Shown in pieces: positions 14,701-29,199 of a DNA stretch of 39,418 bases. Location of the stretch: contig NZ_MWQY01000012.1 in assembly GCF_002087085.1 (NCBI RefSeq), positions 124,001 through 163,418 on the forward strand, read 5' to 3'. The notes under the pieces were generated by a model. It saw only the letters and a program-made list of their open reading frames with translations, did no database searches and had not been told where the DNA came from. Each line of letters opens with the position of its first letter. Within the stretch, counting starts at the first letter, position 1. Made by a program: the position numbers and the translations under genes.

Positions 14701-15132
14701 CCGAACCCTCTCCGCCGCGGGATTCTCGTTGCTCAGACGCAGAAGGATCAGGTCCGCCAACAGTTCATGGGTCTCCCGGGGACCGTCGGGCTCGGCGGGA
14801 AACTCCCTGTTCACCAGCTCCGTCAGTTCCCGGAGCTGCCGTTCATCTCCGGAATCCGGAAGGATCCTCCGGATACCCTTTTCCGAAAGGGTATCTCCCT
14901 CTCCGGCCTGTTTTCTTAGGATAAGCCGGTAGATTTTCTCCAGCATTCCCAGTCCGTAAAGCTCTCCGGCTCTGAGTATTTTTTCCGGATCGATTTCGTC
15001 TCCCCGGGAGGAGTTTACCAGGTGGCAGATGGAGCGGACGGCGTGAAAACTCGAAAGATCCGGCCGCCCTGCGGAGTCCAGGAGGGGACTCCCCAGTTTA
15101 TAGGTCTTGCGGGATTGCTTGTTGATTATCAT
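11728..15132 (-). CDS. Large alpha-amylase family (GH13) protein
   Basis: LWLIGIWERS, ASDMVPNHTG, WNDTAQLNY, IIRFDAAM (nucleophile Asp), LLAEAFW (acid/base Glu) and FMNNPDE. AGGAG upstream. Confidence 0.9.
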   Translation of the reverse strand: MIINKQSRKTYKLGSPLLDSAGRPDLSSFHAVRSICHLVNSSRGDEIDPEKILRAGELYGLGMLEKIYRLILRKQAGEGDTLSEKGIRRILPDSGDERQLRELTELVNREFPAEPDGPRETHELLADLILLRLSNENPAAERVRELIDDTQLTRNSAYAGLINAADTLFIPPAQAESGESLLQMLRRPLTLHPRSVREQLIYIRENWSDLVSELTIPLLSSLDFLAEEERPWFGGGPGEQHPYSYSEGDFEGFSPDQAWMPMVVMIAKNTLVWLHQLSVKYGRNYTHLDDIPDQELSLLAERGFTALWLIGIWERSGASKRIKHLFGNTQAEASAYSLKAYRISPELGGEKALEALRIKAARFGLRLASDMVPNHTGIDADWIYEHPEYYLQVPVSPYPSYSFSGENLASREGYTTCLEDHYFDHSDAAVVFKHVEDSTGRVRYIYHGNDGTHMPWNDTAQLNYLNPGVREAVVQTILKVAGNFPIIRFDAAMTLARQHIRRLWFPEPGEGGSIPSRAEHALSQADFERAIPEEFWREVVDRVAREVPGTLLLAEAFWMMEGYFVRSLGMHRVYNSAFMNMLKNEENDKYRSTLKNTLEFDREILKRFVNFMNNPDEETALAQYGSGDKYFGICTLLVTMPGLPMFGHGQIEGFSEKYGMEYSRAYKDESPNQELIERHEQEIFPLLKRRALFAESEEFTLFDFIGPSGVNQNVFAYTNRSGDEVALVLYNNSLESAAGSIRTSVPYRDKERDGELHRRSLGEALGVPDNPRRWLIMRQHATDLEFIRNCRDLARRGLDAVLPGYGCQVYLDMRIVADDPDGSYRSIAEKLKGSGCSGIDREIRLMHMKPLHQELARTLRPEIIAVFQEAMFNQKKPETGFLASWAEDYRSFLSTASDKKHPPRNVMPSAARAVLQIATFDLSSRGDIEEELAGFRGYLQRGLEMRPEAPSVFAAWCLTHGLSGAFGETSNPGVSRSLIDDWHLGTPLRDIFSHAGLSWPKADYAVSLVKLLTSYQNWHLSVRDRDGNRYLAELLHEQEIQDFLLVNRYNNILWFNKDRFEDMLWWFFCIAVVQLTEKPGAKAHPRIDSLFNTLHTWLECEERSSFRLTRLIDLLNREEGEEKKMGDSSLKDHP

Positions 15133-18100
15133 GATAACTTGGTACTCCTGGGCTCCGTTTTTCCAGCTCTCGTGCGTTTATTATCAGCATCTGCAGCCTG
15201 TTCTCCACGTTGGCAAGACTGGTATCCGGATCAAAGTCGAGGGAGAGAACCTGAATGTGGGGGAGCTTCTTTTTTACCGATTTGATTATTCCCCGGCCGG
15301 TAATGTGGTTCGGCAGACAGCCGAAGGGCTGGATTATAACGAAGGAGTTGACCCCCCGCATACTCTGATCGATTATGTCAGCCGGAATCAGCCAGCCCTT
15401 CCCCGAGTTGAAGACCGGGTCTACGAGACCGTCGATGTGCACTGCAAGATCATCGTACCTTTCCCTGGTTTCAAAGAAGCGAAAGCTCCGGTTGATCCCT
15501 TCCATAAGGCTGATACCCCAGTCTATCAGATTGTCAGTGGCGATGGATTCCAGGGCTTCGAGAAAAGGAAAGCGCACGTGAAAGCGGCGCATGGACTGCC
15601 GAACCGTGGAGGCGTCCTTCTTGAATACGTCGATCATGGGGGGCATGACTACCTCCATGCCGTTTTTCTCCAGGTACTCCTCGATGTGGGCGTTGGAAAC
15701 GGGGTGGTAGTTGATAAGGATCTCTCCGATGACAAATACCCTGGGCTTCCGCTCCCCCTCCACAAGGGGAATGCGGTTAAAGGCCGTCACAGCCGACCGG
15801 TACTCCTCCAGGGCGGCCCTGGTTCCCCGTTCAAAGCCCTGTTGGACACGTTCCAGCCAGTACCTGTGGGTCCTGTCGGTTTCGCCGGAATTCTGTTCAT
15901 AGGGTCGAAGGCGCCGGGCCATGCCGTCCAGGCTGTCACCGATAAGGATGGCCCAGAGCATGCGGTACTGGAAGCTAATGCCGAGTTTGAGTCCCGGGTG
16001 TATCCCCTTTTTATCCTTTCCGGTGGTTATAATGGGTACCTGCGGGTACCCGGCGTCGTCCAGGGCTTTCCGTGCCACCGTCGCGTACTGGGCCAGTCGA
16101 CAGTCGCATTCGAAATGGGCCAGGCCCAGGGCGAAATCGTCGGGACGACCCGAGGCCTCGATATGGGCCAGGGCTTCTCCGATATTCAACTGGGCGGGAA
16201 AACACATATCGTTGTGGACATATTTTTTTCCCAGTTCCACTGCCCGCTCGCCGGCAAGTTCCATGGGGATGGCTCTGTATCCTTCTCTGCGGAGTACCGC
16301 GGCGGTGAGCCGGGTAAAGGTGGGGGAGAGGTTGGGAACCAGGATCGTTTTTTCGCTCCGATGTCCCCTGGTGTACTTGGCTGGAAAGGGGTCCGGAAGC
16401 TTGTGTGTGGCCGTATTTTTTCCTGTCCGCACCCGTTTTGCCCGGACCGTTTCGACAAAGGATTTGATCCGGATGTTCAGGGGGCCTGGTACATCGCTTT
16501 CGTCCAGTTTCAGCACCAGGGGATCCTTGTTCCCTCCCGCCTTCATGATACGTATGATCTCGTCGGAGATAACCGCGTCATGCCCGCAGCCGAAACTGAC
16601 GATCTGAACCAGTTCCAGGGCGGGATGTTCCGCGGCAATCAGGGCGGCTTCGAACATGCGCACGTGAAAATTGATTGCCGTCTCACCCCGTACCCCCGAA
16701 AGATCCACCTCGTTGAAGCCGGGCAGGCTGTCCACGGTGAGGACGGGGATTCCGTGGCGGGTGAAAAAGCGGGAGAGGTCGTGGTTGACCAGAAAATCGT
16801 TATGGTAGGGTCTTCCCGCCAGTACCACGGCGAAATCCCCTTTTTCTTCGCTGCTGCGGATAATCTCCCTGCCTTCGTTCTGCAGGGTCTGCCTGAACTC
16901 GCCCTGGGCCCTGTCTGCTTCGGCAATGGCCTGCTTGAGCACCTGTCGCGGGATGTTGTAGGTGGAGGCAAAGTAGTCCGCCAGCTGCCTGTCCCGGGAC
17001 CGGAGGTCGTACCAGTGGAAGGCCGGGGTATCCATGGGGATTCCGTGGAGGATGGCCGGTTCGTGGCTCTCCTTGAGGATCAGGGGATAGCCCTGGACCA
17101 CGGAACAGAGGTAGTTGGAGACGGCGCTTTTGTTTTCCGACTCCATCCGCAGCATCATGGGCATGAAGATGCGGTCCACCCCTTTTTCAATCAGGTCCAT
17201 CAGGTGGCCGTGGGCTACCTTGCCGGGAAAACAGGCGGTATCCGAGGGAACATAGCGCAGTCCCGCTTCATAGAGTTTACGGGTGCTCTCCCGGGAAATT
17301 TGCACCTTGAAACCCAGGGAACTGAATAGGCTCCGCCAGAAGGGCATGCTGTGCCAGAACTCCAGAACCCGTGGAAGGCCGATGGTATAATTCTTGGGAG
17401 GGCTGAGCTCCCGGGTTTTGTAATCAGCAAAAAGGAGCTCCCGCCTTCTGCGCATCATGTCTGGAACGGTGTCCAGTTTTTGACTGGCGGCCTTGAGTTT
17501 TTCCCTGACTCCGGGATCTTTTACGTCCCCGATTATCTGTCCCCGTTCGCAGCGGTTTCCGGTTATAAACCTCGATCCGTCAGCAAAGCTGACCAGGGTC
17601 CGGCTGCAGTTATTGGAACAGAAGGGGCAGATGTGCCCCGGTTCCTTGGTAAAGGAGAAGTTGGCAAGGCCCTCCTGTCCGATAAATCTGCTTTTTCCGG
17701 AAAGATTCTGCTTCTTTGTCAGCAGGGCAATACCGATGGCACCCATCTCTCCGGGGAAAGGGGCCCGGGTTATCCGCTTGCCCGAGTACTGCTCAAAGGC
17801 CCGCAGAACCGCGTCGTTCTTGAAGGTCCCGCCCTGAACCACCACCGAGTCTCCCAGGGCGTCCAGGTTTGATACCCGGATGACCTTGGTAAAAACGTTC
17901 TCGATAATCGACTTGCAGAGACCCGCCATAATATCCTCCGGGGTCTTGCCGTTCTTCTGTTCCGTGATTATCGAGGAGTTCATGAATATTGTGCAGCGGG
18001 AGCCGAGTTTGGCAGGGGCGGAGGAGGAAAAGGCCTTTTCCGCGATCTCCTCCACCGGGATCTCCAGGGAGTTGGCATAGGTTTCCACGAAGGAGCCGCA

Positions 18101-19504
18101 GCCGGCGGAACAGGCCTCATTGAGGACGATGCCGGTGACGATTCCGCCGGTGAGGGAGATTGCCTTCATGTCCTGGCCGCCGATGTCGAGAATGAAACTC
18201 GCCTCCGGCTGGTAGTGGAGGGCGGCTTCTGCATGGGCCACGGTTTCCACGGTGTGATAATCCGCCTTGAAGGCGGCGGCGAAGAGCCCTTCTCCGTAGC
18301 CGGTGCTGCCGGCGCCGAGGACCCTGAGCTTGACTCCCTGGGCTTCAAAGTGACGATAGCAGTCAAGCAATCCCTGCTGTACTACCGTCAGGGGATCTCC
18401 GTTATTGCCGGAATAGAAGCGGTAGACCACCTCTTCCTCTTCGTTCAGAAGGACGAACTTCGAGGTTGTGGATCCTGCATCTATACCCAGATATACGGAA
18501 AGCTCCGTTCCCGCGGGATGGGCTGGGCTTCTGAAGGCTGTGAGAGGATATCTCCGGTGGAATTTTTCCTTCTCTTCAGGGGAGGAGAAGAAGGGAACCG
18601 CCTCGAAATCCCGTTTGTCGGCGTATTCTCCCTGGGGACGGGCCAGAGCCTTCATGGCCTCGATCTCCTGGTAGCGGTTTTCATCATCTCCGAACATGAT
18701 TCCCACCGAGAGGGCGGTGCCGTAGGCTACAATCACCTCCGGCCGCTCCGGCAGAATGATCTCGTGCTCCTTGAGTCCGAGACGTTCGGCAAAAACCCGG
18801 ATCAGCACCGGATTAAAGGTCAGGGGACCGCCCTCGAATATAACGGGCGGGACGATCTCCATACCCTGGGCGAGACCGCCGATGGTCTGTTTGGCAATGG
18901 CGTGAAAGGTTGAGAGGGCGATGTCCTCTTTGGATACCCCCTGGTTCAAAAGGGGCTGAATATCGGTCTTGGCAAATACCCCGCAGCGCCCGGAAATGGG
19001 GTAAACCGTCTTTCCCCGTTCGGCGTAACTGTTGAATTCCGTGGAGGTAATCTTTAACAGGGAGGCGACTTCGTCAATAAAGGCTCCGGTACCGCCGGCA
19101 CAGGAGCCGTTCATGCGCATGTCCGAGGCCATCAGCCTGCCGGTGTTCTCGTCGTGGTGGAAAAAAACGACCTTCGCGTCCTGTCCGCCCAGTTCAATGG
19201 CGACCCTGGTCCGGGGAAAGAATTCCCGTATGGCCAGGGAGTTGGCCACCACCTCCTGAATGTAGTGTCCGTTTACGGCCTTGGCGATGATCCGCCCGCC
19301 GGATCCGCAGACGGCCACGTTGAAATCGGCTCCAGGAAAGAGCGCATGGGCTTCTGCCAGCAGTTCCCTGGCGCAGGCAGCCTGCTTGGCCCCGTGACGA
19401 CGGTATACGGCGTGGAGAAGTTCTTTTGTTTCAGGGTCGACAAGGGCAATTTTAAGGGTAGTGGATCCGACATCAAGTCCGGCCCAAATTTGAGAACGGG
19501 ACAT
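15098..19504 (-). CDS. Fused 2-hydroxyacyl-CoA dehydratase activase-like protein (2x BadF/BcrA ATPase + DUF2229 + HGD-D-like); PlsAR/Ger-like
   Basis: GLDVGSTTLK..ELGGQDAK..NGSCAGGTG..SGRCGVF; GIDAGSTTSK..DIGGQDMK..NEACSAGCG..GSRCTIF; CPFCSNNC; SDTACFPGKVAHGH; SFGCGHD; NDMCFPA; QPFGCLPNH. Start ATG 19504 (1468 aa). Confidence 0.9.
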   Translation of the reverse strand: MSRSQIWAGLDVGSTTLKIALVDPETKELLHAVYRRHGAKQAACARELLAEAHALFPGADFNVAVCGSGGRIIAKAVNGHYIQEVVANSLAIREFFPRTRVAIELGGQDAKVVFFHHDENTGRLMASDMRMNGSCAGGTGAFIDEVASLLKITSTEFNSYAERGKTVYPISGRCGVFAKTDIQPLLNQGVSKEDIALSTFHAIAKQTIGGLAQGMEIVPPVIFEGGPLTFNPVLIRVFAERLGLKEHEIILPERPEVIVAYGTALSVGIMFGDDENRYQEIEAMKALARPQGEYADKRDFEAVPFFSSPEEKEKFHRRYPLTAFRSPAHPAGTELSVYLGIDAGSTTSKFVLLNEEEEVVYRFYSGNNGDPLTVVQQGLLDCYRHFEAQGVKLRVLGAGSTGYGEGLFAAAFKADYHTVETVAHAEAALHYQPEASFILDIGGQDMKAISLTGGIVTGIVLNEACSAGCGSFVETYANSLEIPVEEIAEKAFSSSAPAKLGSRCTIFMNSSIITEQKNGKTPEDIMAGLCKSIIENVFTKVIRVSNLDALGDSVVVQGGTFKNDAVLRAFEQYSGKRITRAPFPGEMGAIGIALLTKKQNLSGKSRFIGQEGLANFSFTKEPGHICPFCSNNCSRTLVSFADGSRFITGNRCERGQIIGDVKDPGVREKLKAASQKLDTVPDMMRRRRELLFADYKTRELSPPKNYTIGLPRVLEFWHSMPFWRSLFSSLGFKVQISRESTRKLYEAGLRYVPSDTACFPGKVAHGHLMDLIEKGVDRIFMPMMLRMESENKSAVSNYLCSVVQGYPLILKESHEPAILHGIPMDTPAFHWYDLRSRDRQLADYFASTYNIPRQVLKQAIAEADRAQGEFRQTLQNEGREIIRSSEEKGDFAVVLAGRPYHNDFLVNHDLSRFFTRHGIPVLTVDSLPGFNEVDLSGVRGETAINFHVRMFEAALIAAEHPALELVQIVSFGCGHDAVISDEIIRIMKAGGNKDPLVLKLDESDVPGPLNIRIKSFVETVRAKRVRTGKNTATHKLPDPFPAKYTRGHRSEKTILVPNLSPTFTRLTAAVLRREGYRAIPMELAGERAVELGKKYVHNDMCFPAQLNIGEALAHIEASGRPDDFALGLAHFECDCRLAQYATVARKALDDAGYPQVPIITTGKDKKGIHPGLKLGISFQYRMLWAILIGDSLDGMARRLRPYEQNSGETDRTHRYWLERVQQGFERGTRAALEEYRSAVTAFNRIPLVEGERKPRVFVIGEILINYHPVSNAHIEEYLEKNGMEVVMPPMIDVFKKDASTVRQSMRRFHVRFPFLEALESIATDNLIDWGISLMEGINRSFRFFETRERYDDLAVHIDGLVDPVFNSGKGWLIPADIIDQSMRGVNSFVIIQPFGCLPNHITGRGIIKSVKKKLPHIQVLSLDFDPDTSLANVENRLQMLIINARELEKRSPGVPSYHDNQQAIPQDL

Positions 19505-19618
19505 TGTTTTTCCTCTTGCCTGCCGATGATAGTAATTATTCCGGTTTTTGTCGAGCAGTCGGGTCTGATTCCGCGGTAATGCAGGATTCTCCGGCAACGT
19601 TTTCCGGAATAAAAAGTA

Positions 19619-19637
19619 TGGCAGATTCTATCTGTCA
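19619..19637. promoter_or_regulatory. Imperfect palindrome, putative operator upstream of the activase-like gene
   Basis: TGGCAGAT-TCT-ATCTGTCA (7 of 8 arm positions pair), overlapping a weak minus-strand TAGACT-N16-CATACT promoter. Confidence 0.4.
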
Positions 19638-19683
19638 GTCTATTATGCAGAGGGTCAGACGTGAGAATACTAATGAAAAAATT

Positions 19684-19738
19684 TGTAACATAAATGTAAT
19701 ACAGGCTTCAGATTTGCTTCATAAATATTCCTTAGATT
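19684..19738 (+). promoter_or_regulatory. OmpR-family (CopR-like) direct-repeat sites plus -10 element for the SHOCT gene
   Basis: TGTAA at 19684 and 19695 and GCTTCA at 19705 and 19716, each pair 11 bp apart. TAGATT at 19733-19738 is a -10 candidate with no good -35. Confidence 0.55.
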
Positions 19739-19798
19739 GTACTTGAACACCGGGAGGAAGAATCCCGGATGAAAGATGTGTTCTGGAGGATAGTAAGT

Positions 19799-20329
19799 AT
19801 GAAACGCTACTTTTTTGTTTTTTTTGCCGTGTTTATTCTTGTTTCCGTAGCCGTCTGGGGCGATTCTGATACCCATGATCAGAGCATTGCGGATGTGGAG
19901 TCTGAAATCAGGGACGTCCTGGGACTGACCATGACCGAAAACATAAATCCGGAAAAGGTTCCTGACAACCTGATGCTCGAACTTGGTGACGCTGTAATGG
20001 CCAGTCATGTCGGCAGTGGAGCGCAGCACGAATGGATGGACCGGATGATGGGCGGAGAAGGCTCCGATTCGCTGGACTCTGCACACCGGTGGATGGCTTT
20101 CCAGTATCTTACCGGCGGCTATGGTGCTTCTGGTATGGGGGGTTACGGTATGATGGGAGGCGGCATGATGGGCGGCGGCATAGGCCGCGGCTGGGGCCTG
20201 ATGAGCAATTCGGGGGTAGAGAATTATTCCAACCCCTACAATTCGCCCGAGGACATCCTCAAGCGGCGCTATGCCGCCGGAGAGATTACCCGGGAACAGT
20301 ATCAGCAGATGCTCAAGGATCTGCAATAA
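19799..20329 (+). CDS. Exported Met/His/Gly-rich protein with C-terminal SHOCT domain
   Basis: GGAGGA RBS; signal peptide MKRYFFVFFAVFILVSVAVWG; HEWMDRMMGGEGS; GMMGGGMMGG; SHOCT PEDILKRRYAAGEITREQYQQMLKDL. Confidence 0.85.
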   Translation: MKRYFFVFFAVFILVSVAVWGDSDTHDQSIADVESEIRDVLGLTMTENINPEKVPDNLMLELGDAVMASHVGSGAQHEWMDRMMGGEGSDSLDSAHRWMAFQYLTGGYGASGMGGYGMMGGGMMGGGIGRGWGLMSNSGVENYSNPYNSPEDILKRRYAAGEITREQYQQMLKDLQ

Positions 20330-20339
20330 TGCCCCTCCT

Positions 20340-20382
20340 GCCGGGGGTAACGCGCATCAGCCACGTAACCCCCGGCTTTTTT
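20340..20382 (+). terminator. Rho-independent terminator after the SHOCT gene
   Basis: GCCGGGGGT...ACCCCCGGC stem followed by TTTTTT. Confidence 0.7.
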
Positions 20383-20401
20383 CATTACCGGAGCACCCTG
20401 T

Positions 20402-21022
20402 ATGAAATCCGATCAGGAACGTATACAACGCCGATATGACCGCATAGCGCCCCTGTACGATCTGCTTGAGCGCCCCATGGAAGCCAGTTTTGTGGCATGG
20501 AGAGTGCAGCTTCTGACCAAGGCTGCCGGCCGTGTTCTGGAAGTCGGCGTCGGCACCGGCAAGAATCTTCCCTATTATCCGCCCGATGTATCGGTAACGG
20601 GAATCGATTTCAGCCGCGAAATGATTGAACGAGCCCGGTCCCGGGTGGAGAGTCAGGGTCTGGATAACGTGACCCTCATTGAAATGAACGCGGAAGAGCT
20701 TTCCTTTGAGGATAACAGCTTTGACACAATAGTCAGTACCTGTGTTTTCTGCTCGGTGCCGCTACCGGTAAACGGGCTGCGGGAGTTGCAGAGAGTCTGC
20801 AGGCCCGACGGGAGAGTCCTCATGCTCGAGCATGTCAGGAGTGAGGGACCTGTTATGGGTCCCCTTATGGATTTCCTGAACCCCCTTCCCCTCTATCTGT
20901 ATGGAGCCAACATAAACCGCCGGACTGTGGATAATCTGCTGCAGGCCGGTTTTCAGCACATAGAGGTAACAAACCTGTGGCGCGATATCGTCAAACAGAT
21001 AATTGCCCGTCCGGGCGCATGA
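20402..21022 (+). CDS. Class I SAM-dependent methyltransferase
   Basis: RYDRIAPLYD, VLEVGVGTGKNL, GIDFSREM, FEDNSFDTIV, CVFCSVP and LMLEHVRS. Confidence 0.92.
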   Translation: MKSDQERIQRRYDRIAPLYDLLERPMEASFVAWRVQLLTKAAGRVLEVGVGTGKNLPYYPPDVSVTGIDFSREMIERARSRVESQGLDNVTLIEMNAEELSFEDNSFDTIVSTCVFCSVPLPVNGLRELQRVCRPDGRVLMLEHVRSEGPVMGPLMDFLNPLPLYLYGANINRRTVDNLLQAGFQHIEVTNLWRDIVKQIIARPGA

Positions 21023-21059
21023 GTTCTTCGTACCCCGGTGCGGAAGGATATACGATACT

Positions 21060-22985
21060 ATGAATGACAACCTACTGAAGCAACCACAACGTTATGTTCT
21101 TGCAGGTACCGACATTGCAGGCGGGCCTTCCGTGGCCGGCATTCTTGTTTCCGGCGTTTCCGGACCTGAAGGCTTCTCGAAGGAAAAAAAGTTTACATCG
21201 ACTACATCCGGTGCAGAAGAAGAGAAGTATAGCATTGAGACGGAAATTGCCCTGCTTGGGGATGAAGTTCGTTCCATGGCGGAAATACTGAACCGGGAAG
21301 GTTTCGAGTCGGAGTCGAAAATACTCGATACGCATGTTCTGATGCTTGAGGACGAAGGAATAAAGTCCAGACTCATGCACCGAATTGAGGAGTACGGAGA
21401 GTCTGCAGAGGAAGCGGTGGTCTGTGTATTCGGAGAAATGAAAGATCGCCTGCTGGAATCGGATAATGCCCTGATACGTGAACGATCCGCTGATGTTGAG
21501 GATCTGATGCAGCGTCTTAAGTCTCGATTATCCGGAATTGAGCAAATCCGGGAATTGCCCGTCCCGGTAAGAAACGCCTCCCTGGTGCTTGTTTTTCCAG
21601 AACTCTTTGTATCGAATGTTGTGGAGGCTCGAAACGCCGGTGTTGCGGCGATTATCGTTGAGTCCGGAACAGGATTTTCCCACGCTGCCATCATGGCGAA
21701 AGCATTCGGGATACCCGTACTTAGAGTCAATGGTATTGAAAAGCTGTATGAAGCGATGGGCGCAATAGTCGTGGTGGATGTGGAAAACGGTCGACTGGTG
21801 ATACATGCCGACGAAGACGACATTTCGTCAGCTGCACTGGCATCCGCAACTGCGACGGATGAAGCATATATCGACTCGCCCCTGAATATATGGCTCAATC
21901 TTGTTGATACGGATTCACATCCCCCGGAATCGTTACATGGCGATACTATAGCGGGAATCGGGCTCTTTCGGAGTGAGTCTCTGCTTACCGAGCGATTGTC
22001 AGGATTCCCCAGCGAAGAAGAACAGTACGCAGTCTATCTACAGCTCTGCAGACGGTGGAAGCGTTATCCCGTTACTATCCGCATGTTTGATATCGGTGGC
22101 GACAAGACCGTACCGTATTTTTCACTGGGACCACAGGATAATCCTTTTCTGGGACTGCGGGCCCACCGACTGTATCGCTTTCATCCGGAGCTTTTCATGA
22201 ATCAGGTCCGGGCAATTCTTCGAGCCGGTATTGAGTGTTCTGATCTTCGTATTCTTTTCCCGATGATAGAAACAGTTGAGGAGCTCAAATATCTGCAGGA
22301 ACTGCTGGCGTCTGCGATGGAAGAAATGAAGCAACAGGGAACGGCGTATCGTCATGACGTTAAACAGGGAGTATTGATTGAAGTTCCTTCCGCTGTATGG
22401 ATTCTGAAAGATCTACTGGAACGGCTGGATTTCATCAGCGTCGGTACCAATGATCTGTTGCAGTACCATTTTGCAGTTGATCGCGGTAATATTAATGTGA
22501 GTAATTACTACCAACCCGAGCATCCGTCAGCTCTTCGGATGCTGAAATATATTGCTGACGCTGCATCGGAATCCGGGAAGCAGATTACTCTCTGTGGAGA
22601 GATTGCAGCGGATCCGTATCTTGTTCCTGTACTTTACGGTATGGGGTTCAGGGATCTCAGTGTCGACTTCCATGCCGTTAATTCTGTCCGGCTTTCCGTG
22701 CCTGAAGGTTCAAGCGACGGGTTGGAGAATATTGCCGCCCGTTGTGTGTCCGCATCCTCAATCGAGGAGGTACACGCGATCTTGGACGAATCGGGAGGTT
22801 CTGATCGCTTGAAGCCTCTCGACCACAGTAATCGGGGGACAGGATTCATTGATCCTGTTTGTGGAATGGTAGTCCACAGGCAGGAAAATCTATACTCGTT
22901 TACTACGGACAGGGAGACGTACTTTTTTTGTTCGCCGGAATGTTTAGAGCAGTTTTCCCGTAAACCTGAAAGGTATATACGCTAA
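21060..22985 (+). CDS. ptsP: PEP-protein phosphotransferase (PTS Enzyme I, PtsI-like) fused to a C-terminal YHS domain
   Basis: IRERSADVED; phospho-His motif GTGFSHAAIMAKAFGIP; GIGLFRSE, IRMFDIGGDK, NPFLGLRA, IEVPSA, SVGTNDLLQY..AVDR and LCGEIA; C-terminus DPVCGM..YFFCSPECLEQF..PERY. ATG 21060 (641 aa). Confidence 0.92.
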   Translation: MNDNLLKQPQRYVLAGTDIAGGPSVAGILVSGVSGPEGFSKEKKFTSTTSGAEEEKYSIETEIALLGDEVRSMAEILNREGFESESKILDTHVLMLEDEGIKSRLMHRIEEYGESAEEAVVCVFGEMKDRLLESDNALIRERSADVEDLMQRLKSRLSGIEQIRELPVPVRNASLVLVFPELFVSNVVEARNAGVAAIIVESGTGFSHAAIMAKAFGIPVLRVNGIEKLYEAMGAIVVVDVENGRLVIHADEDDISSAALASATATDEAYIDSPLNIWLNLVDTDSHPPESLHGDTIAGIGLFRSESLLTERLSGFPSEEEQYAVYLQLCRRWKRYPVTIRMFDIGGDKTVPYFSLGPQDNPFLGLRAHRLYRFHPELFMNQVRAILRAGIECSDLRILFPMIETVEELKYLQELLASAMEEMKQQGTAYRHDVKQGVLIEVPSAVWILKDLLERLDFISVGTNDLLQYHFAVDRGNINVSNYYQPEHPSALRMLKYIADAASESGKQITLCGEIAADPYLVPVLYGMGFRDLSVDFHAVNSVRLSVPEGSSDGLENIAARCVSASSIEEVHAILDESGGSDRLKPLDHSNRGTGFIDPVCGMVVHRQENLYSFTTDRETYFFCSPECLEQFSRKPERYIR

Positions 22986-23054
22986 TTCATGCAAGAAATC
23001 GACCTTGAGGATTTGCTTTCTCCGGATGAACGATGACGAGTTGTTCCGGACTCA

Positions 23055-24176
23055 TCAGGAATCTGAATCTATGGGAAGGGTTAAGGTAAAGGTGCTGCCG
23101 AAGCCGGGCCCCCGGCTGTCTGCGGTAATAGTGCCGCCGTGGGCGCGGGCCAGGTGGATCGCGATGGTCAATCCGATTCCGCTGCCTCCGTGGGCCCGGG
23201 CCCGGGAAGAATCGACCCGGTAGAAGCGGTCGAAGAGATGCGGCAGATGTTCCGGCGCAATTCCTATGCCGGTATCCTGGATTGAGAACCGGAGATGAGA
23301 GTTGAGGAGGCTGCATTTGAGCCGTACAACTCCACCCTGGTTTGTGTATTGCAGCGCGTTGCCGAGCAGGTTGATCAGGATCTGCAGTACCCGTTCACTG
23401 TCCATCCTGATATGTGGCAGGTTGTGGGATACTTCCACGACAAGCTGCACGCCTTTGTCTTCAAACTGGGATTCCAGCCGGGATACGGTACGACGTATGA
23501 GCTCCGCCGGATTGGTCTGCTCGAGATCTAGCTGAATAATCCCCGCTTCCGCCTTCGAGAGCTGGCTCAGTTCCTCGGTCAGGCGCTGCAGCCGGGATGT
23601 TTCTCGCTGGACATCGAGGAAGGTTTCGGTATCCGGAGAAAGCACCCCGTCGATAAGCCCCTCCATCATGCTGCGGATTCCCGTCAGGGGTGTCTTGAGC
23701 TCATGGGCGAGGTTCCCGATCAGCTCCGTACGTCGGCGCTCGGTTCCTTCCAGGATTTCCGCCATCTGGTTAAAACTCAGGGCCAGTTCGCCCAGCTCGT
23801 CATTCCATTTGGTCTGTATCCTGTCGCTGTAATTGCCGTCCGCTATGCGTTTGCTTGCTTCCATCAGGGACCGGATGGGGCTGACGATCCTCCAGGCAAT
23901 GAAACTGCTTGCCAGTACCGCGGCAACAGAGGCTACAACCCCGGAAATGAGAAGAATCTCATTGCTTGCCGCCAGAAAATTTCTGCGCAGGTCCTCCGCC
24001 ATTGCATTATCCGGTCCCAGAAGGATCCGCATGTGTTCCATGTGGTGCAGAAACGCGTTGGGCGCCTGAATCCGGGATGTAACTACCAGAACCAGGCTGC
24101 CGACAACAACGATCAGAATGTGCGAAAGGAAGAGCTTCCAGCCCAGCAGGTGAGGTACGGGTTTCCTGATTTTCAT
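23055..24176 (-). CDS. HAMP sensor histidine kinase (BaeS/CopS-like)
   Basis: 2 TM with a short FLHHMEHM loop, HAMP (DELGELALSFNQMA), H-box AHELKTPL, N-box QILINLLGNALQY, DTGIGI and GGSGIGL. Confidence 0.95.
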   Translation of the reverse strand: MKIRKPVPHLLGWKLFLSHILIVVVGSLVLVVTSRIQAPNAFLHHMEHMRILLGPDNAMAEDLRRNFLAASNEILLISGVVASVAAVLASSFIAWRIVSPIRSLMEASKRIADGNYSDRIQTKWNDELGELALSFNQMAEILEGTERRRTELIGNLAHELKTPLTGIRSMMEGLIDGVLSPDTETFLDVQRETSRLQRLTEELSQLSKAEAGIIQLDLEQTNPAELIRRTVSRLESQFEDKGVQLVVEVSHNLPHIRMDSERVLQILINLLGNALQYTNQGGVVRLKCSLLNSHLRFSIQDTGIGIAPEHLPHLFDRFYRVDSSRARAHGGSGIGLTIAIHLARAHGGTITADSRGPGFGSTFTLTLPIDSDS

Positions 24177-24883
24177 GCGTTTGCCGCCTCAAAACGGTAT
24201 CCGGCGCTGCGCACCGTCACGACAATGCCGGCGGAGGCCGGATTATCCTCTATTTTCTGCCGCAGGCGCCGGATGTGAACATCCACAACACGCTCATCGA
24301 TGTAATAGTCGTCCTTCCACACATGCTCGATGAGCTGGTCCCGGCTGAGCACTCTGTCGTGGTTGGTTGCCAGGACATGCAGCAGATCGAATTCGATCGG
24401 TGTCAGCTGCAGCAGCCGGTCGTCCTTCCATACTTTTCGCCCCGCCGGATCGATGGTAATCCGGGAGAACCGGATTGACCGGTCCCCCTCGCTGGTCGAA
24501 TGCCGTTCACGGCGCTGGAGTACCGTTACCCGGGCTGCCACTTCCCGTGGACTGAAGGGTTTGACAACATAATCATCGGCACCCATCCGCAGTCCGAGGA
24601 GCCGGTCCGTTTCGTCTCCCCGGGCGCTCAGCATCAGAACCATGACGGAAGATTCCTGCCGTATGCGGCGGAGCACCTCTATGCCGTCGATCCCGGGGAG
24701 CATGACATCCAGAATTATTACCGAGGGCGTGAACCTGCGCATTGCAGGAAGAACCTCGTTGCCGTGGGAAACTTCCTCTACCTCATACCCCTCGTTTTCC
24801 AGGTACGCCCGCAGGGATTTCCTGATTGCCGACTCGTCGTCGACAACCAGTACCCGCTTTTCCGTCTTCATAGCGTTACTCAT
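24173..24883 (-). CDS. OmpR-family response regulator (CopR-like)
   Basis: VLVVDDE, LDVMLPGIDG, GADDYVVKPF, LTPIEFDLL, VVDVHIRRLRQK and TVRSAGY. 4-bp overlap with the kinase; alternative start at 24871. Confidence 0.95.
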   Translation of the reverse strand: MSNAMKTEKRVLVVDDESAIRKSLRAYLENEGYEVEEVSHGNEVLPAMRRFTPSVIILDVMLPGIDGIEVLRRIRQESSVMVLMLSARGDETDRLLGLRMGADDYVVKPFSPREVAARVTVLQRRERHSTSEGDRSIRFSRITIDPAGRKVWKDDRLLQLTPIEFDLLHVLATNHDRVLSRDQLIEHVWKDDYYIDERVVDVHIRRLRQKIEDNPASAGIVVTVRSAGYRFEAANA

Positions 24884-24933
24884 CCCCGCTCAGGAGAAAT
24901 TGACTCCGTCTACCGGCCGCCGGGTGCGAAACT

Positions 24934-26955
24934 TCACGCGGTGGCCTCCTCCAGCTCCTCTTTTTTGACCCGCAGGAGCCGGGCGTTGATAGCGACGATA
25001 ACCGTGGAGAGGGACATGAGGATCGCGCCGACTTCGGGAGAGAGCACGATGCCTGCGTTGTAGAGAACACCTGCTGCCAGAGGAATAGCCACGACGTTGT
25101 ACCCGGTTGCCCAGATCAGGTTCTGCACCATTTTTTGATAGGTTGCTCTACCGAAAAGGATCAGGGCGGTAATGTCCAAGGGATTGGAATTGACAAGAAT
25201 AATGTCCGCCGTGGAAGCCGCGACATCCGTTCCCGAGCCGACCGCAATACCCACTTGGGCCTGTGCCAACGCTGGTGAGTCGTTAACGCCGTCGCCGGTC
25301 ATGGCGACGTATTCTCCCTTTTTCTGCAGTTCCTTTATCTTCTCCTGTTTCTGGTCCGGCAGAACCTCCGCAAAGAAGCCGTCCATTCCCAGTTCCTCTG
25401 CAACTGCCTTCGCTGTAGCAGTGTTATCTCCAGTAAGCATCCAGCACTTTATGCCCCGTTTCTGCAGGGCCTGCACCGCTTTGTAGGATTCGGGACGGAT
25501 GGTATCGGAAAGGGCCAGAGATCCCGCAATGGTGTTGTCCACAAGAACGAACACCCTGGTAACCCCCCCTTTGGCTTCCGCACCTTCCGGAATCGCAAGA
25601 TTCTGCTCCTTCAGGTATCCGGGGCTGACTACCTCTATCTGCTTTCCGGAAACGATACCGGAGACCCCTTTTCCCTTGATGGCTTCGAAATTATCCGCCG
25701 ACTCAGGCTTGATCCCCATGGTCGTGGCTTTCTGAACAATTCCCTTGCCGATAGGGTGCTCGGAATGCCCTTCCAGGCTGGCGGCGAAGGAGACAATCTG
25801 CTCTTCGGTGTAACTGTCGCTGTGAACGTTGACGGCGGTTACTTCGAAGGTCCCGTTGGTCAGGGTTCCGGTTTTGTCGAATACCAGGGTGCTTATTCTG
25901 CGGGCGTTTTCGAAGGCTGTCCGGTTGCGTATCAGAAGACCATTCTGGGCAGATTTCGAGGTGGAAACGGAGACAACAAGAGGAATCGCCAGGCCGAGGG
26001 CATGGGGGCAGGTAATGATCATGACCGTGGCCATGCGTGCGATTGAGAACTGCAAATCCATTCCGGCGATAAGCCAGGCGGCAAGGGTAACGGCCCCCAC
26101 GCTTATGGCGACAATGGTAAGCCAGAAGGCCGCCCGGTCGGAGAGGGCCTGGGTTTTGGATTTTGCTGCCTGGGCCTCGCGTACCATGTTGATGACCTTG
26201 GAAAGGTACGAATCCTCGCCGGCGCCTTCGACCCGAAGCTCCAGAGATCCGTCGCCGTTGATCGAACCGCCGATCAGGGTGTCGCCGGTCTGCTTTTTGA
26301 CGGGCCTGGATTCCCCGGTCAGCATCGATTCGTCGATGTAGCTTTCGCCCCTGACGACCTCGCCGTCGGAGGGAATCTTTTCTCCTGGTTTGATCAGCAG
26401 CACGTCCCCTTTTTGGATTTCTGATAAAGGAACGTCTTCCGTTTCGTCGCCTTTTTTACGGTGAGCTTCGCTCGGCATGAGCTGTGCCAGTTTTTCCAGG
26501 GAGGACGAGGCGCTCAGGACCGATGCCATCTCGATCCAGTGTCCCGCCAGCATGATTGCTATCAGGGTTGCAAGTTCCCAGTAAAAAGGCGACCCTTGCA
26601 GGCCGAAGGTCACCGCCGCGCTGTAGACGTAGGCGACTGAAATAGCCAACCCGATAAGAGTCATCATGCCGGGATTTTTCGCCTTTAATTCGCTGATCAG
26701 ACCTGAGAGGAATGGACGTCCTCCATAGAAGAAGATAACCGTTGCCAGTGTGAAAACTACGTAGTCCGACCCTGCGAACCCGAAGGAAAATCCCAGCAGC
26801 TGTTGAATAAGTTTCGAAAGGGCCAGGATCGGGACGGTAAGAACAAGGGTAACATAGAAGCGCCTCCTGAAGTCCCGTATCATCATGCGGTGGTGTTCGT
26901 TGTGGTCGTGATGACTCTGGTGTTCATGATGTTCGTGATGGTCGGTTGTGGCCAT
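24934..26955 (-). CDS. copB: Copper-translocating P1B-3 type ATPase
   Basis: His-rich N-terminus DHHEHHEHQSHHDHNEHH, TGES, CPHALGLA, DKTGT, SEHP, GDGVND, YN and MSLST. GGAGG RBS. Confidence 0.95.
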   Translation of the reverse strand: MATTDHHEHHEHQSHHDHNEHHRMMIRDFRRRFYVTLVLTVPILALSKLIQQLLGFSFGFAGSDYVVFTLATVIFFYGGRPFLSGLISELKAKNPGMMTLIGLAISVAYVYSAAVTFGLQGSPFYWELATLIAIMLAGHWIEMASVLSASSSLEKLAQLMPSEAHRKKGDETEDVPLSEIQKGDVLLIKPGEKIPSDGEVVRGESYIDESMLTGESRPVKKQTGDTLIGGSINGDGSLELRVEGAGEDSYLSKVINMVREAQAAKSKTQALSDRAAFWLTIVAISVGAVTLAAWLIAGMDLQFSIARMATVMIITCPHALGLAIPLVVSVSTSKSAQNGLLIRNRTAFENARRISTLVFDKTGTLTNGTFEVTAVNVHSDSYTEEQIVSFAASLEGHSEHPIGKGIVQKATTMGIKPESADNFEAIKGKGVSGIVSGKQIEVVSPGYLKEQNLAIPEGAEAKGGVTRVFVLVDNTIAGSLALSDTIRPESYKAVQALQKRGIKCWMLTGDNTATAKAVAEELGMDGFFAEVLPDQKQEKIKELQKKGEYVAMTGDGVNDSPALAQAQVGIAVGSGTDVAASTADIILVNSNPLDITALILFGRATYQKMVQNLIWATGYNVVAIPLAAGVLYNAGIVLSPEVGAILMSLSTVIVAINARLLRVKKEELEEATA

Positions 26956-27151
26956 AAAAATCCTCCGTGTTTTGCGCAGCGGGAATCCCCGGAACGGTTA
27001 CATATAAACGCATATCCGACGGAAAAGAACAGACCTGCAAGAATGAGCCGCATGCTCTGCCCGGCAGAGACTCCGCTTCAAAGGTAAAAATCTCTGGCGT
27101 AAAGATCTAACGAATCCGTTACGTCGATGATTTTATGATCATTCTTATAAG

Positions 27152-27180
27152 AATATACTATACCCCCCCGGGGTATTCAA
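27152..27180 (-). promoter_or_regulatory. Sigma-70 promoter for copB with a CsoR-type operator in the spacer
   Basis: Minus strand reads TTGAAT-N17-TATATT; plus strand 27160-27176 is ATACCCCCCCGGGGTAT (ATAC-C tract/G tract-GTAT). Confidence 0.8.
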
Positions 27181-27327
27181 GAAAAATCATTATCCACCAT
27201 AATATGGTAATACGCGCTCTTGACGTGTATATTTTTTCCCCCCATGATTTACATGAAGGCAAGATTAGATTCAAAACTGGCACCGGGAGGGCTTTTCCTG
27301 CATGTCGGTTCCTGTCGGGGGGATAAT

Positions 27328-27612
27328 ATGAGCGATTCGCAGAAGAAAACCAAACTGATGGAAGTCTCAGTCTGCATAGGAACGAATTGTGCGTTCCGCG
27401 GTGCATCGCAGCTCATGGAAGCCCTTGTTGCAGATAAAGAAATCCGTGAAAAATGTACCATTCATGAGATTTCGTGCCAGAACGATATGTGTGATCATTC
27501 CCGCAGATCTCCGGTGGTTCGGATAGATGGTGACTATTTTCTGGAGGCACGCCCGGAAGTAATCCTCGACGAAGTCCATCGGCGTATCGCGATGAAAAAG
27601 ATTAAGGCCTGA
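27328..27612 (+). CDS. Thioredoxin-like [2Fe-2S] ferredoxin (NuoE/HfsA-like small protein)
   Basis: VSVCIGTNCAFRGA...SCQNDMC...SPVVRIDG; ATG 27328 after GGGGGA; 3 nt before the hydrogenase gene. Confidence 0.85.
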   Translation: MSDSQKKTKLMEVSVCIGTNCAFRGASQLMEALVADKEIREKCTIHEISCQNDMCDHSRRSPVVRIDGDYFLEARPEVILDEVHRRIAMKKIKA

Positions 27613-27615
27613 AGC

Positions 27616-29151
27616 ATGAAAGAGATTGGTGTAAAGCGTGTTTTCGAGCGAATGCGGGGGATCTATACACCCGTTACGGATTTACGCCGTCGCCTGCTTA
27701 TGGAAATCGCCGGATTTGTTCTGGAAGGGAAAGAACCTGCTGCAATCGAAGAAATCCCTTTCAAAGTTATCGAAATGGGTAAACCGACCTATCGCTGCTG
27801 CTCCTACCGGGAGCTGTCTATAATCCGGCAGCGAATACGGCTGGCATTCGGGTTGGCGCTGATTGAAGAGCGGGATAACATCCCAGTTTCGCGGGGAATC
27901 GAAAAAGCCTTCACCGATAGGAAAGTGATCGATGCCCCGTTGGTGCATGTTATTCGTGCCGCTTGTGAAAAATGTCCTGAAGACGTGGTTCTTGTTACCG
28001 ATAAATGCCAGGCCTGCATGGCCCATCCCTGTTCCATTGTCTGCCCCCGGAACGCCATCTCGTTCCCGGAAAGTAAGGCCGTTATCGATCAGGAAAAGTG
28101 CATTAAATGTATGAAATGTGTTCAGGTCTGCCCCTATGCGGCAATCACGAGGATGGTGCGTCCCTGCGCCGAAGCCTGCGGTGTGGATGCGATTGATTCC
28201 GACGACGAAGGTTTTGCCCGGATAAATCATGCAACCTGCGTCAGCTGCGGGTTGTGCATTGTCTCCTGTCCTTTTGCCGCAATAGCGGAAAAATCGGAGA
28301 TTGTTCAGGTGGTTATCAGTCTGCTCCGTAAAAGCAGTCAAAGTAAATTGTATGCCATTGTTGCGCCTTCTTTTCCTGGACAGTTCGGAAGCAAGGTTTC
28401 TCCCGAGATGATTTTCGCAGGGATCAGCAAGCTTGGATTCGACAAGATTATGGAAGTCGCCTACGGTGCGGATTGCGACACGATTCTGCTTGCAGACAGG
28501 TACCGAAAAAAGCAGAGCGGGTTTCTGGGGACCTCTTGCTGCCCTTCGTGGGTCAAGGCGGCACGGGCATATTATCCGGACCTGGCGGAGAATATTGCAG
28601 ACAGTTACACCCCAATGGTGGAAACTGCAAAAAAGATCAAGGAACGGGATGCGGATGCAAAGGTTATTTTTATCGGACCCTGTATCGCCAAAAAAGATGA
28701 AGCCATGAGCGAAGAAGTTGCCGGATACGTTGATCATGTCCTGACCTTCGAGGAACTGGCGGCTTTGTTTGTGACTTTCAGTATCGATTTGCTTTCCCTT
28801 GCGAGGGAGATGCCCGTGGATGATGCCAGTGTCCTGGGCCGGGGATATGCGAATGCAGGAGGTGTCGGCGAAGCTATTATCCGTACAGCTGAAAAAAGCC
28901 ATGGGATAACCGATATTCAGTTTGAACGAGCCGATACCCTGCAGGAATGCAGGGCGATGCTGGAAAGAATCAAGCGCGGAGAGAGAAGCCCGGACCTCAT
29001 AGAGGGAATGGCGTGTCCCGGCGGATGTGTCGGCGGTCCGGGGACGCTGTCATCTCTAAAGCAGGCGGCGCGGCAGGTTACCAGGTTTGCCGAATCCGCA
29101 TCCTTTCATTTTCCCCTTTGTGATGAGGAACCTTCAGTCGGTAATCCGTAA
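27616..29151 (+). CDS. Monomeric [FeFe]-hydrogenase, group B-like, with N-terminal 4Fe-4S domains
   Basis: H-cluster motifs TSCCPSW, GPCIAKKDE and EGMACPGGCVGGPG; RCCSYRE; CQACMAHPCSIVCP, CIKCMKCVQVCP and CVSCGLCIVSCP. Confidence 0.92.
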   Translation: MKEIGVKRVFERMRGIYTPVTDLRRRLLMEIAGFVLEGKEPAAIEEIPFKVIEMGKPTYRCCSYRELSIIRQRIRLAFGLALIEERDNIPVSRGIEKAFTDRKVIDAPLVHVIRAACEKCPEDVVLVTDKCQACMAHPCSIVCPRNAISFPESKAVIDQEKCIKCMKCVQVCPYAAITRMVRPCAEACGVDAIDSDDEGFARINHATCVSCGLCIVSCPFAAIAEKSEIVQVVISLLRKSSQSKLYAIVAPSFPGQFGSKVSPEMIFAGISKLGFDKIMEVAYGADCDTILLADRYRKKQSGFLGTSCCPSWVKAARAYYPDLAENIADSYTPMVETAKKIKERDADAKVIFIGPCIAKKDEAMSEEVAGYVDHVLTFEELAALFVTFSIDLLSLAREMPVDDASVLGRGYANAGGVGEAIIRTAEKSHGITDIQFERADTLQECRAMLERIKRGERSPDLIEGMACPGGCVGGPGTLSSLKQAARQVTRFAESASFHFPLCDEEPSVGNP

Positions 29152-29199
29152 TCCGTCCAGGAAGAGAATTCCAGTATACTATTCGGAGGGAAACCTTGC

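Follow-up and report, generated by a model that had tools for sequence, protein, structure and literature searches.

Why should a bacterial copper-resistance locus encode an Enzyme I of the phosphoenolpyruvate (PEP)-dependent phosphotransferase system (PTS), and one that ends in a YHS domain? The question is raised by a 39,418-nucleotide stretch of DNA (the window; positions 124,001 to 163,418, forward strand, of contig NZ_MWQY01000012.1, RefSeq assembly GCF_002087085.1), in which a plus-strand unit encoding, in order, a SHOCT-domain protein, a methyltransferase and the fused enzyme, hereafter Enzyme I-YHS, converges with a minus-strand unit encoding a CopB-type ATPase, a response regulator and a sensor kinase (Table 1). 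Open reading frame and profile checks found all six genes of this copper locus intact, on the strands and in the two convergent units described by a first-pass annotation of the sequence. Our comparisons indicate that the pump and its regulators form a module of a familiar, CopRS-like type, that the two-tier order of control is a local arrangement, and that the real novelty lies in Enzyme I-YHS, a clade whose copper regulators are exchangeable. The best explanation, to which as a whole we give about even chances, is that a horizontally acquired copper-resistance segment carries a copper-induced, YHS-gated accessory Enzyme I that would phosphorylate the HPr of its host. In the following, G000 denotes the genome under study, G001, G002 and G004 are congeners and other G numbers comparison genomes; L and C numbers denote loci and contigs.

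Enzyme I-YHS comprises, in order, an N-terminal helical, a swivelling His and a PEP-binding TIM-barrel domain (PF05524, PF00391 and PF02896, all above cut-offs), followed by the YHS/TRASH domain (PF04945, 36.7 bits vs. a cut-off of 30.3). In an alignment to Escherichia coli Enzyme I, His208, Cys512 and the PEP site were intact, and H208, R304, R341, K349, R367, E441, N464, D465 and C512 were found in 100% of 60 aligned family members. Likewise, the YHS ligands D598, C601, C624 and C628 were invariant in 60/60 homologues. The protein scored below the PtsI/PtsP equivalog cut-offs (276.7 vs. 824 for NF008382 and 317.5 vs. 583 for NF008283). Its predicted model (pLDDT 86) matched the fold of Enzyme I structures (Foldseek TM of 0.91 of the target vs. 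the C-domain 6VBJ), with around 20 residues of low model confidence in the linker before the YHS domain. Docking of the YHS domain on the Enzyme I C-domain dimer scored 0.52, compared to 0.00 for the best control, with runs agreeing in at least 91% of contacts and a partner pLDDT of at least 76. The docking mark is reached by 116/157 solved and 2/215 mismatched pairs, and at scores up to 0.60 by 18/157 solved pairs and both mismatches; the model thus weakly supports such a contact.

Apart from the query itself, the 120 best homologues were 36–49% identical to it; 116/120 carried the YHS motif, and the other four looked truncated or frameshifted. Their sources were spirochaetes, delta-proteobacteria, planctomycetes, Gemmatimonadota, Zixibacteria and Rhodothermia; judging by named homologues, the host of the window DNA is probably a spirochaete. 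In a FastTree phylogeny (570 columns, YHS domain excluded) that combined 60 members with 46 ordinary Enzyme I proteins, Enzyme I-YHS formed one clade on a branch of 0.65, with a support of 1.0. Carriers amounted to 5/401 genomes of the host class and, in samples of other phyla, to at least 2/401, at least 0/167 and at least 1/351, which are lower bounds because thresholds were strict and, in two of the samples, three candidates were scored per genome. Enzyme I-YHS was not found in five congeners, nor among the best 15 of 526 records in a plasmid search, all of which were approximately 30–34% identical. Frameshifted copies (decay or assembly error) were seen at L013:9707-11801 and in L103. As judged by sequence, Enzyme I-YHS is a distinct, rare and patchy clade with intact catalytic residues, and the new part of the locus. 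It was not found in the literature searched, which took in few subscription papers; automated annotations already carry the name Enzyme I/YHS for some members, and the domain architecture is therefore already in databases.

To place the enzyme in its genomic context, 48 loci (43 metagenomic, L013 and four genomes) were collapsed into 30 groups at 85% identity. The metagenomic set came from 49 motif matches, six of which were dropped (L107, L126, L136 and L138, without Enzyme I; L100, ordinary-like; L103, frameshifted, sub-threshold). Controls were 79 loci of ordinary Enzyme I, taken from a family-alignment scan in which 1/80 loci was Enzyme I-YHS; since they are housekeeping loci of other taxa, the comparison is a contrast and not a statistical test. 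Neighbour genes were called with a simple scorer, and Pfam was searched with 146 + 18 representatives (315 clusters; later loci). Searches with the proteins of the window detected a P1B ATPase near Enzyme I-YHS in 12/30 groups, the methyltransferase in 8/30 and the SHOCT protein (SHOCT-186) in 5/30, each vs. 0/79 controls, while the kinase (3/30) and the regulator (2/30) were each matched in 6/79 controls. The two-component pair of the window is thus no regular neighbour of Enzyme I-YHS. Queries drawn from the test loci, self-matches included, gave solo YHS proteins in 12/30 groups, ICMT-like proteins in 10 (and one control), spermidine-synthase-like proteins in 8, YHS-reductases in 6, DUF5676 in 6 and multicopper oxidases in 5. 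Overall, any core metal gene was present in 17/30 groups vs. 2/79 controls, and any island gene in 22/30 groups (20/22 loci of at least 8 kb) vs. 3/79. The first-pass annotation had named homologues without metal genes as a refutation of its proposal; this check did not refute it, only 2/22 groups of at least 8 kb being without island genes.

The YHS-reductases, in which the domain is fused to a second housekeeping-type, thioredoxin-reductase-like enzyme in 6/30 groups of the same islands, also fit another explanation, which we consider clearly less probable: Cu(I) would poison canonical Enzyme I, and Enzyme I-YHS would be an induced, copper-tolerant isoenzyme in which the YHS domain sacrificially traps metal rather than acting as an allosteric switch. 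In agreement with this, a canonical Enzyme I is always also present, and induction at the gene level is already provided by CsoR or the regulator. However, Enzyme I-YHS has invariant residues of its own in surface loops of the PEP domain (S355, G357, H369, R373, H375, W447 and N479), which suggest a conserved added interaction, and in the one YHS enzyme tested the domain activates (PMC4626032).

The same text mentions that YHS/TRASH sites bind Cd too, in L24e (PMC4626032), as would suit a response of another direction or to another metal, in which metal inhibits the enzyme or the signal comes from thiol oxidation, Ag(I) or a further soft metal. The neighbours included genes for MerT, cation-diffusion and thioredoxin-family proteins, and two more family-specific cysteines, 555 and 562, are conserved, though residue 555 is Leu in the window copy. 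We nevertheless judge this improbable, as the adjoining pumps are copper-type, multicopper oxidases occur in 5/30 groups and the CsoR of G000 carries Cys34/His59/Cys63, which we take to be the Cu(I) fingerprint.

Copper-type cis-elements preceded Enzyme I-YHS in 5/5 same-class carrier genomes, by way of the SHOCT gene in G000 and directly upstream in the 4/4 others. In G288, the only other genome with both the kinase and Enzyme I-YHS, a repeat array like that of the window lies 76 bp upstream of the gene. Three genomes in which the kinase was not found presented CsoR-type sites instead: at -109 in G298, with no copper pump within 9 kb; at -201 in G316, in common with a divergent copA; and as two imperfect sites, read by eye, in G399. 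All three encode CsoR. Hence, regulator boxes were found where the kinase is present (2/2 genomes) and CsoR-type sites where it was not found (3/3). It is these predicted elements that, in our view, argue most strongly for the gene itself being part of the copper response. In the metagenomic loci, no repeat array was seen around Enzyme I-YHS, and CsoR patterns gave intergenic matches in three loci only, none directly upstream of the gene.

That such elements lie directly upstream in 4/4 other same-class genomes, and that frame, catalytic and YHS residues are intact, makes it very improbable that Enzyme I-YHS is a passenger, i.e., island cargo behind a terminator with no copper role. What speaks for a passenger is the GC content of its gene (0.493 vs. 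0.54–0.58 for the neighbours), the terminator-like hairpin upstream, a G307 module without the enzyme and the departure of the window copy from the family consensus at several sites.

The box found in the window and in G288 consists of four direct repeats, at 19685, 19696, 19707 and 19718 (GTAAC/GTAAT/TTCAG/TTCAT), with one match in the window, none in 100 shuffles and one in the genome. The 11-bp-phased repeats that the first-pass annotation had placed upstream of the plus-strand unit are thus unique in the genome, and they recur before the SHOCT gene of five other genomes with the same kinase. A four-repeat pattern built from three sites (the window, the G288 SHOCT gene and a G288 heavy-metal-domain-like gene) then matched the SHOCT promoter of G307 and the site before Enzyme I-YHS in G288. 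Loosening of the third repeat gave further matches in G171 and G026, and in G234 one spacing was one base short. In total, seven aligned sites in five other genomes carrying the kinase shared the geometry of the window, and in 8/8 aligned sites a TAnnnT hexamer followed exactly 10 nt past the last repeat. This is the layout of a regulator box in place of a -35 element, as known for PhoB. Whole-genome array counts were one in G000, three in G288, one each in G307 and G171 and two in G026, all beside island genes; G001, G004, G298 and G399 had none, and G316 had one AT-rich, chance-like match outside any island. Reversed-pattern controls gave no match in all 10 genomes, and there was one chance-like array match among the control loci. 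The phased repeats are very likely the box of the response regulator of the window. Simple two-repeat patterns were rejected as not discriminating (15 and 22 genome matches, no enrichment).

Close orthologues of the kinase were detected in 6/400 other genomes of the host class, next to copB and a SHOCT gene in 4/6, as is the SHOCT gene, in turn, next to copB and kinase in four other genomes. In G288 the kinase lies 19 kb from copB and the SHOCT gene in the same island, and neither is on the 6-kb contig of G354. Regulators beside kinase orthologues with SHOCT/copB genes or a repeat array were 52–72% identical to that of the window. G307, with copB, SHOCT gene, methyltransferase and convergent kinase-regulator pair, reproduces the window locus without Enzyme I-YHS. 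Among five plasmid relatives examined, two lay by copper ATPases, one by other island genes and two in different settings. Within the HHMEHM loop of the kinase, only H45 (95%) and M49 (89%) hold across 80 homologues. Of the copper-ligand signatures credited to four proteins in the first-pass annotation, those of the YHS protein, the ATPase (CPH, YN and MSLS, with 10 His among the first 30 residues) and the SHOCT protein (176 residues, of which 15 are Met and 4 His; an H-x-x-MD-x-MMGGEGS block is conserved among homologues) were found, whereas the kinase loop is not conserved as a whole.

The minus-strand unit opens with the ATPase gene. CPH, YN and MSxS motifs with a His-rich N-terminus are the set that marks P1B-3 (CopB) ATPases, and the window protein has all of them. 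The operator in its promoter, ATACCCCCCCGGGGTAT at 27160-27176, matched once in the window and in none of 100 shuffles, and agrees with TAC-N9-GTA and the streptomycete CsoR consensus (PMC3902906). G000 has a single csoR, the first gene of csoR-copZ-copA on contig C2 (promoter at G000:C2:89133), whose promoter has the layout of the copB promoter, TTGA-TACCC...GGGTATAGTATATT. A combined promoter-plus-operator pattern, composed after both sites had been seen, hit two sites in the 4.2-Mb genome, the copB and csoR-copZ-copA promoters. The CsoR-type operator claimed at copB therefore matches that of the genome's own csoR operon and, as it sits inside the promoter and G000 encodes a CsoR, this repressor likely controls copB. 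Co-transcription of copB with the regulator gene, and with the kinase gene behind it, is also likely, because the regulator gene begins 50 bp past copB with no hairpin seen between them by eye. Inverted repeats in the copB leader folded no better than shuffles, and a promoter/terminator scan was at chance level overall. A copper locus, as postulated in the first-pass annotation, is thus supported, with likely CsoR control of copB and a very probable regulator box. The two-tier cascade of the annotation is not supported as a general system: the layering of CsoR over the two-component pair was seen in this window only, and in other genomes a separate promoter seems to serve the pair.

On the plus strand, SHOCT homologues share the Met of 19799 (alternative start, 19769), and an ESM Atlas search with this protein returned only matches below 0.8. 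A hairpin that the first-pass annotation did not record lies between the SHOCT and methyltransferase genes; at the same place, there is a short gap only in G307 and, in G288, a hairpin that no T run follows. Methyltransferase copies, 68–71% identical, come after the SHOCT gene in G288 and G307.

Table 1. Features of the copper locus in the window and their coordinates.
Feature	Coordinates	Strand	Evidence or remark
Enzyme I-YHS, 641 aa, PTS Enzyme I with C-terminal YHS/TRASH domain	21060..22985	+	TIGR01417, 360.6 bits (cut-off 341.7); PF04945
Four 11-bp-phased KTMAY repeats (19685-19722), then -10-like TAGATT (19733-19738)	19685..19738	+	Predicted regulator-activated promoter
SHOCT protein, 176 aa, Met/His-rich, exported or anchored in the membrane; SHOCT domain at the C-terminus	19799..20329	+	Pfam SHOCT, E 5e-8
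13-bp hairpin + T6, intrinsic-terminator-like	20340..20382	+	-27.2 kcal/mol, z -2.96, 1/200 shuffles equally stable
Class I SAM-dependent methyltransferase	20402..21022	+	Pfam Methyltransf_11, E 4e-23; below NCBIfam cut-offs among the matches listed
CopS-like sensor kinase, HAMP-HisKA-HATPase, two membrane helices around a short loop	23055..24176	-	Conserved His45/Met49
OmpR/PhoB-family response regulator, CopR-like	24173..24883	-	Domain match
CopB-type P1B ATPase	24934..26955	-	TIGR01511, 618 bits (cut-off 397); CPH, YN, MSxS, His-rich N-terminus
Sigma-70-type promoter TTGAAT-17-TATATT with CsoR-type operator TAC-N9-GTA (27160-27176) in the spacer	27152..27180	-	Faces copB
Accessory segment, approximate extent	19570..29195		Copper genes, 2Fe-2S gene and [FeFe] hydrogenase gene

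From these elements, a mechanism can be proposed. Cytoplasmic Cu(I) would free the copB promoter from the trans-encoded CsoR, the regulator and the kinase being co-transcribed behind copB; this first step has sequence support. In a second step, supported by sequence except for the activation itself, the His/Met loop of the kinase would sense copper outside, and phosphorylated regulator on the four phased repeats would switch on the SHOCT gene, with partial read-through past the hairpin into the methyltransferase and Enzyme I-YHS genes. The enzyme would autophosphorylate on His208 from PEP, with metal at the Asp/Cys3 YHS site acting as an allosteric switch, as copper does in a YHS adenylyl cyclase, and would pass the phosphate to the ordinary HPr of the host. 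The phosphorylation state of HPr could in turn shift carbon and energy metabolism, for instance towards reserve mobilisation for ATP-driven export. In E. coli, HPr controls and phosphorylates glycogen phosphorylase (PMC13324651), and this control is one possible output. A canonical Enzyme I and HPr are encoded elsewhere in 6/6 genomes checked, among them G000 with its three HPr proteins; therefore, Enzyme I-YHS is accessory and the host HPr the simplest acceptor. The arrangement suggests that copper stress may be wired directly into carbon-metabolism signalling.

Several points weigh against an HPr-coupled copper response. Metal binding, activity, direction of regulation and acceptor are what we infer. 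The control loci belong to housekeeping Enzyme I genes from other taxa, and the test loci themselves supplied several of the neighbour queries. Long loci without island genes exist (L113, after enolase and before an antiporter, and the frameshifted L013), and G426 was without a CsoR match. The copB/SHOCT/kinase/regulator module occurs without detected Enzyme I-YHS in four genomes, and the enzyme is dispensable in that most module carriers are without it; in the window, the hairpin may reduce transcription beyond the SHOCT gene, into those of the methyltransferase and Enzyme I-YHS, so that the latter may be weakly expressed. In none of the 30 groups did an HPr gene lie close to Enzyme I-YHS, compared to 36/79 controls. 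In the stretch that we take to be the HPr-contact loop, position 134 is Ser in 92% of the family vs. mostly Leu/Ile/Met in ordinary Enzyme I, and position 138 is Leu/Val/Ile vs. Tyr/Phe in 72% of ordinary Enzyme I.

The missing HPr genes and the two altered positions would also be expected of a dedicated phosphorelay, in which Enzyme I-YHS would pass its phosphate to an acceptor other than HPr, encoded in the island or elsewhere, and this acceptor would govern envelope modification or the export of copper. Recurrent uncharacterised neighbours would also suit it (spermidine-synthase-like membrane protein, 8/30; ICMT-like, 10/30; DUF5676, 6/30; P-II-like, 4/30). However, no obligate partner is visible, because no neighbour family exceeds 12/30 and none of those four is in the window; the first three were not found in G000 by tblastn above 50 bits. 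Further, the helical, HPr-binding domain is retained, with the Enzyme I pattern D98, A119, R142 and D145. We therefore rate a dedicated relay as unlikely, slightly more so than an isoenzyme that traps copper, and prefer the accessory Enzyme I acting on host HPr.

With regard to known systems, the window enzyme shares domain set, phospho-His, catalytic Cys, PEP-site residues and fold with PTS Enzyme I (PtsI; PDB 2HWG, 2WQD), from which it differs in its C-terminal YHS domain, its own clade, its family-specific AHRxYRxHPE loop, the absence of linked HPr or Enzyme II, and its location in copper islands with copper-type cis-elements. Enzyme I-Ntr (GAF-EI), a regulatory paralogue, resembles Enzyme I-YHS in that an accessory Enzyme I bears a small domain for ligand binding. 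A precedent is a class IIIc adenylyl cyclase of Mycobacterium phlei that is switched on by copper and has a C-terminal YHS domain with Asp and three Cys on a signalling enzyme, like Enzyme I-YHS (PMC4626032); catalytic domain and output differ, and the linker is longer in Enzyme I-YHS. Copper activation was measured for the cyclase, whereas here it is presumed.

The first-pass annotation had put the copper system forward as a candidate undescribed one. This stands for Enzyme I-YHS as far as our literature search goes, but the combination of a CopB pump, CopRS and a separate CsoR has already been described in Corynebacterium glutamicum (PMC3140484). Both systems link an OmpR-type pair to a CopB ATPase and combine, in the same cell, a cytoplasmic CsoR with an extracytoplasmic sensor. 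Identities were taken against the cop region on Corynebacterium plasmid pLEW279b, nearly identical to that of C. glutamicum: 39% for the kinase, 42% for the regulator and 46% for CopB, the 39–42% of the pair being the same level as for other OmpR-family pairs in G000. Linkage to copB and the 11-bp phasing of the box agree with the corynebacterial CopRS type, to which the pair can be assigned tentatively at such an identity, and the pair scored below the CusRS/PcoRS family cut-offs (180.7 vs. 292.55 for TIGR01386; 173.9 vs. 279.2 for TIGR01387). The last two window repeats share TTCA and the 11-bp phasing with the Corynebacterium CopR site (TTCA/TGAA half-sites; PMC3140484); the window differs in having four repeats with GTMA and TTCA half-sites, in CsoR over copB-regulator-kinase, and in its targets, SHOCT protein, methyltransferase and Enzyme I-YHS as opposed to the multicopper oxidase and thioredoxin reported for C. 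glutamicum. In the CsoR-controlled copZA of Streptomyces lividans (PMC3902906), TAC-N9-GTA with G/C tracts lies inside the promoter, as at the window copB, although here the repressor gene is elsewhere (C2) and the controlled unit includes a two-component pair.

In the best explanation, the segment was acquired horizontally. In the congeners G002 and G004 it (approximately 19570-29195) was missing and the flanking genes lay around 210 bp apart, and G001 had at its site only a frameshifted copB (L149:1285-3224), due to decay or assembly error. No target-site duplication longer than 7 bp was found at the segment ends. Also part of this segment, absent from congeners, are genes for a 2Fe-2S protein and a monomeric [FeFe] hydrogenase (27328-29151, plus strand; TIGR04105 above cut-off), which diverge from the copB promoter and have a promoter-like site of their own (27220-27248), starting 44 bp from the CsoR operator. 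Flanking it are a 1,468-aa CoA-enzyme-activase fusion (15101-19503) and then a 1,134-aa alpha-amylase-family protein (11728-15132), both on the minus strand and conserved in congeners. Elsewhere, G000 encodes a second copB, 76% identical and without operator or kinase (G000:C65:170974-172878), and, at G000:C34:175740-187500, a further cluster in which DUF302 and a small SHOCT gene accompany a two-component pair. A 12-mer, TATGGTAATACG, lies near a CsoR operator in two genomes: 28 bp off in the window (27204-27215) and overlapping the operator's right end in G298 (L146:8814-8825).

Further observations concern the neighbours of Enzyme I-YHS. In L113 and L161 (G1260:C36), the gene overlaps or directly follows that of enolase, a PEP-forming enzyme, with no copper-island genes. 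An N-terminal YHS domain was seen on thioredoxin-reductase-like proteins in L094, L097, L101, L105, L109 and L112, whose genes are often part of the same operon as Enzyme I-YHS. An approximately 800-aa membrane protein with a spermidine-synthase-like domain is encoded near the enzyme in L094, L098, L105, L112, L117, L118, L140, L146 and L148; in G298 its gene comes directly after that of Enzyme I-YHS, under the CsoR site. L145 (G288:C14:176045-178626) has an apolipoprotein N-acyltransferase-like gene and csoR between copB pieces, with two CsoR palindromes between csoR and copB.

The comparison defines a promoter for a CopRS-like system, i.e., four phased repeats, 10 nt and a -10 box, and in the window CsoR is a candidate for a layer of control above such a two-component system. 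To our knowledge, the known inputs of Enzyme I are carbon and nitrogen metabolites. If our explanation is true, Enzyme I-YHS would connect metal stress directly to PTS signalling, through a conserved clade whose regulators have been exchanged between lineages. At somewhat less than even likelihood, Enzyme I-YHS may be a metal-gated entry into the PTS on a mobile gene that, in any host, turns copper stress into a PEP-derived phosphohistidine signal and that, together with the YHS cyclase and the YHS-reductase, would form a hitherto undescribed post-translational copper regulon over central carbon metabolism or reach an acceptor outside the known PTS.

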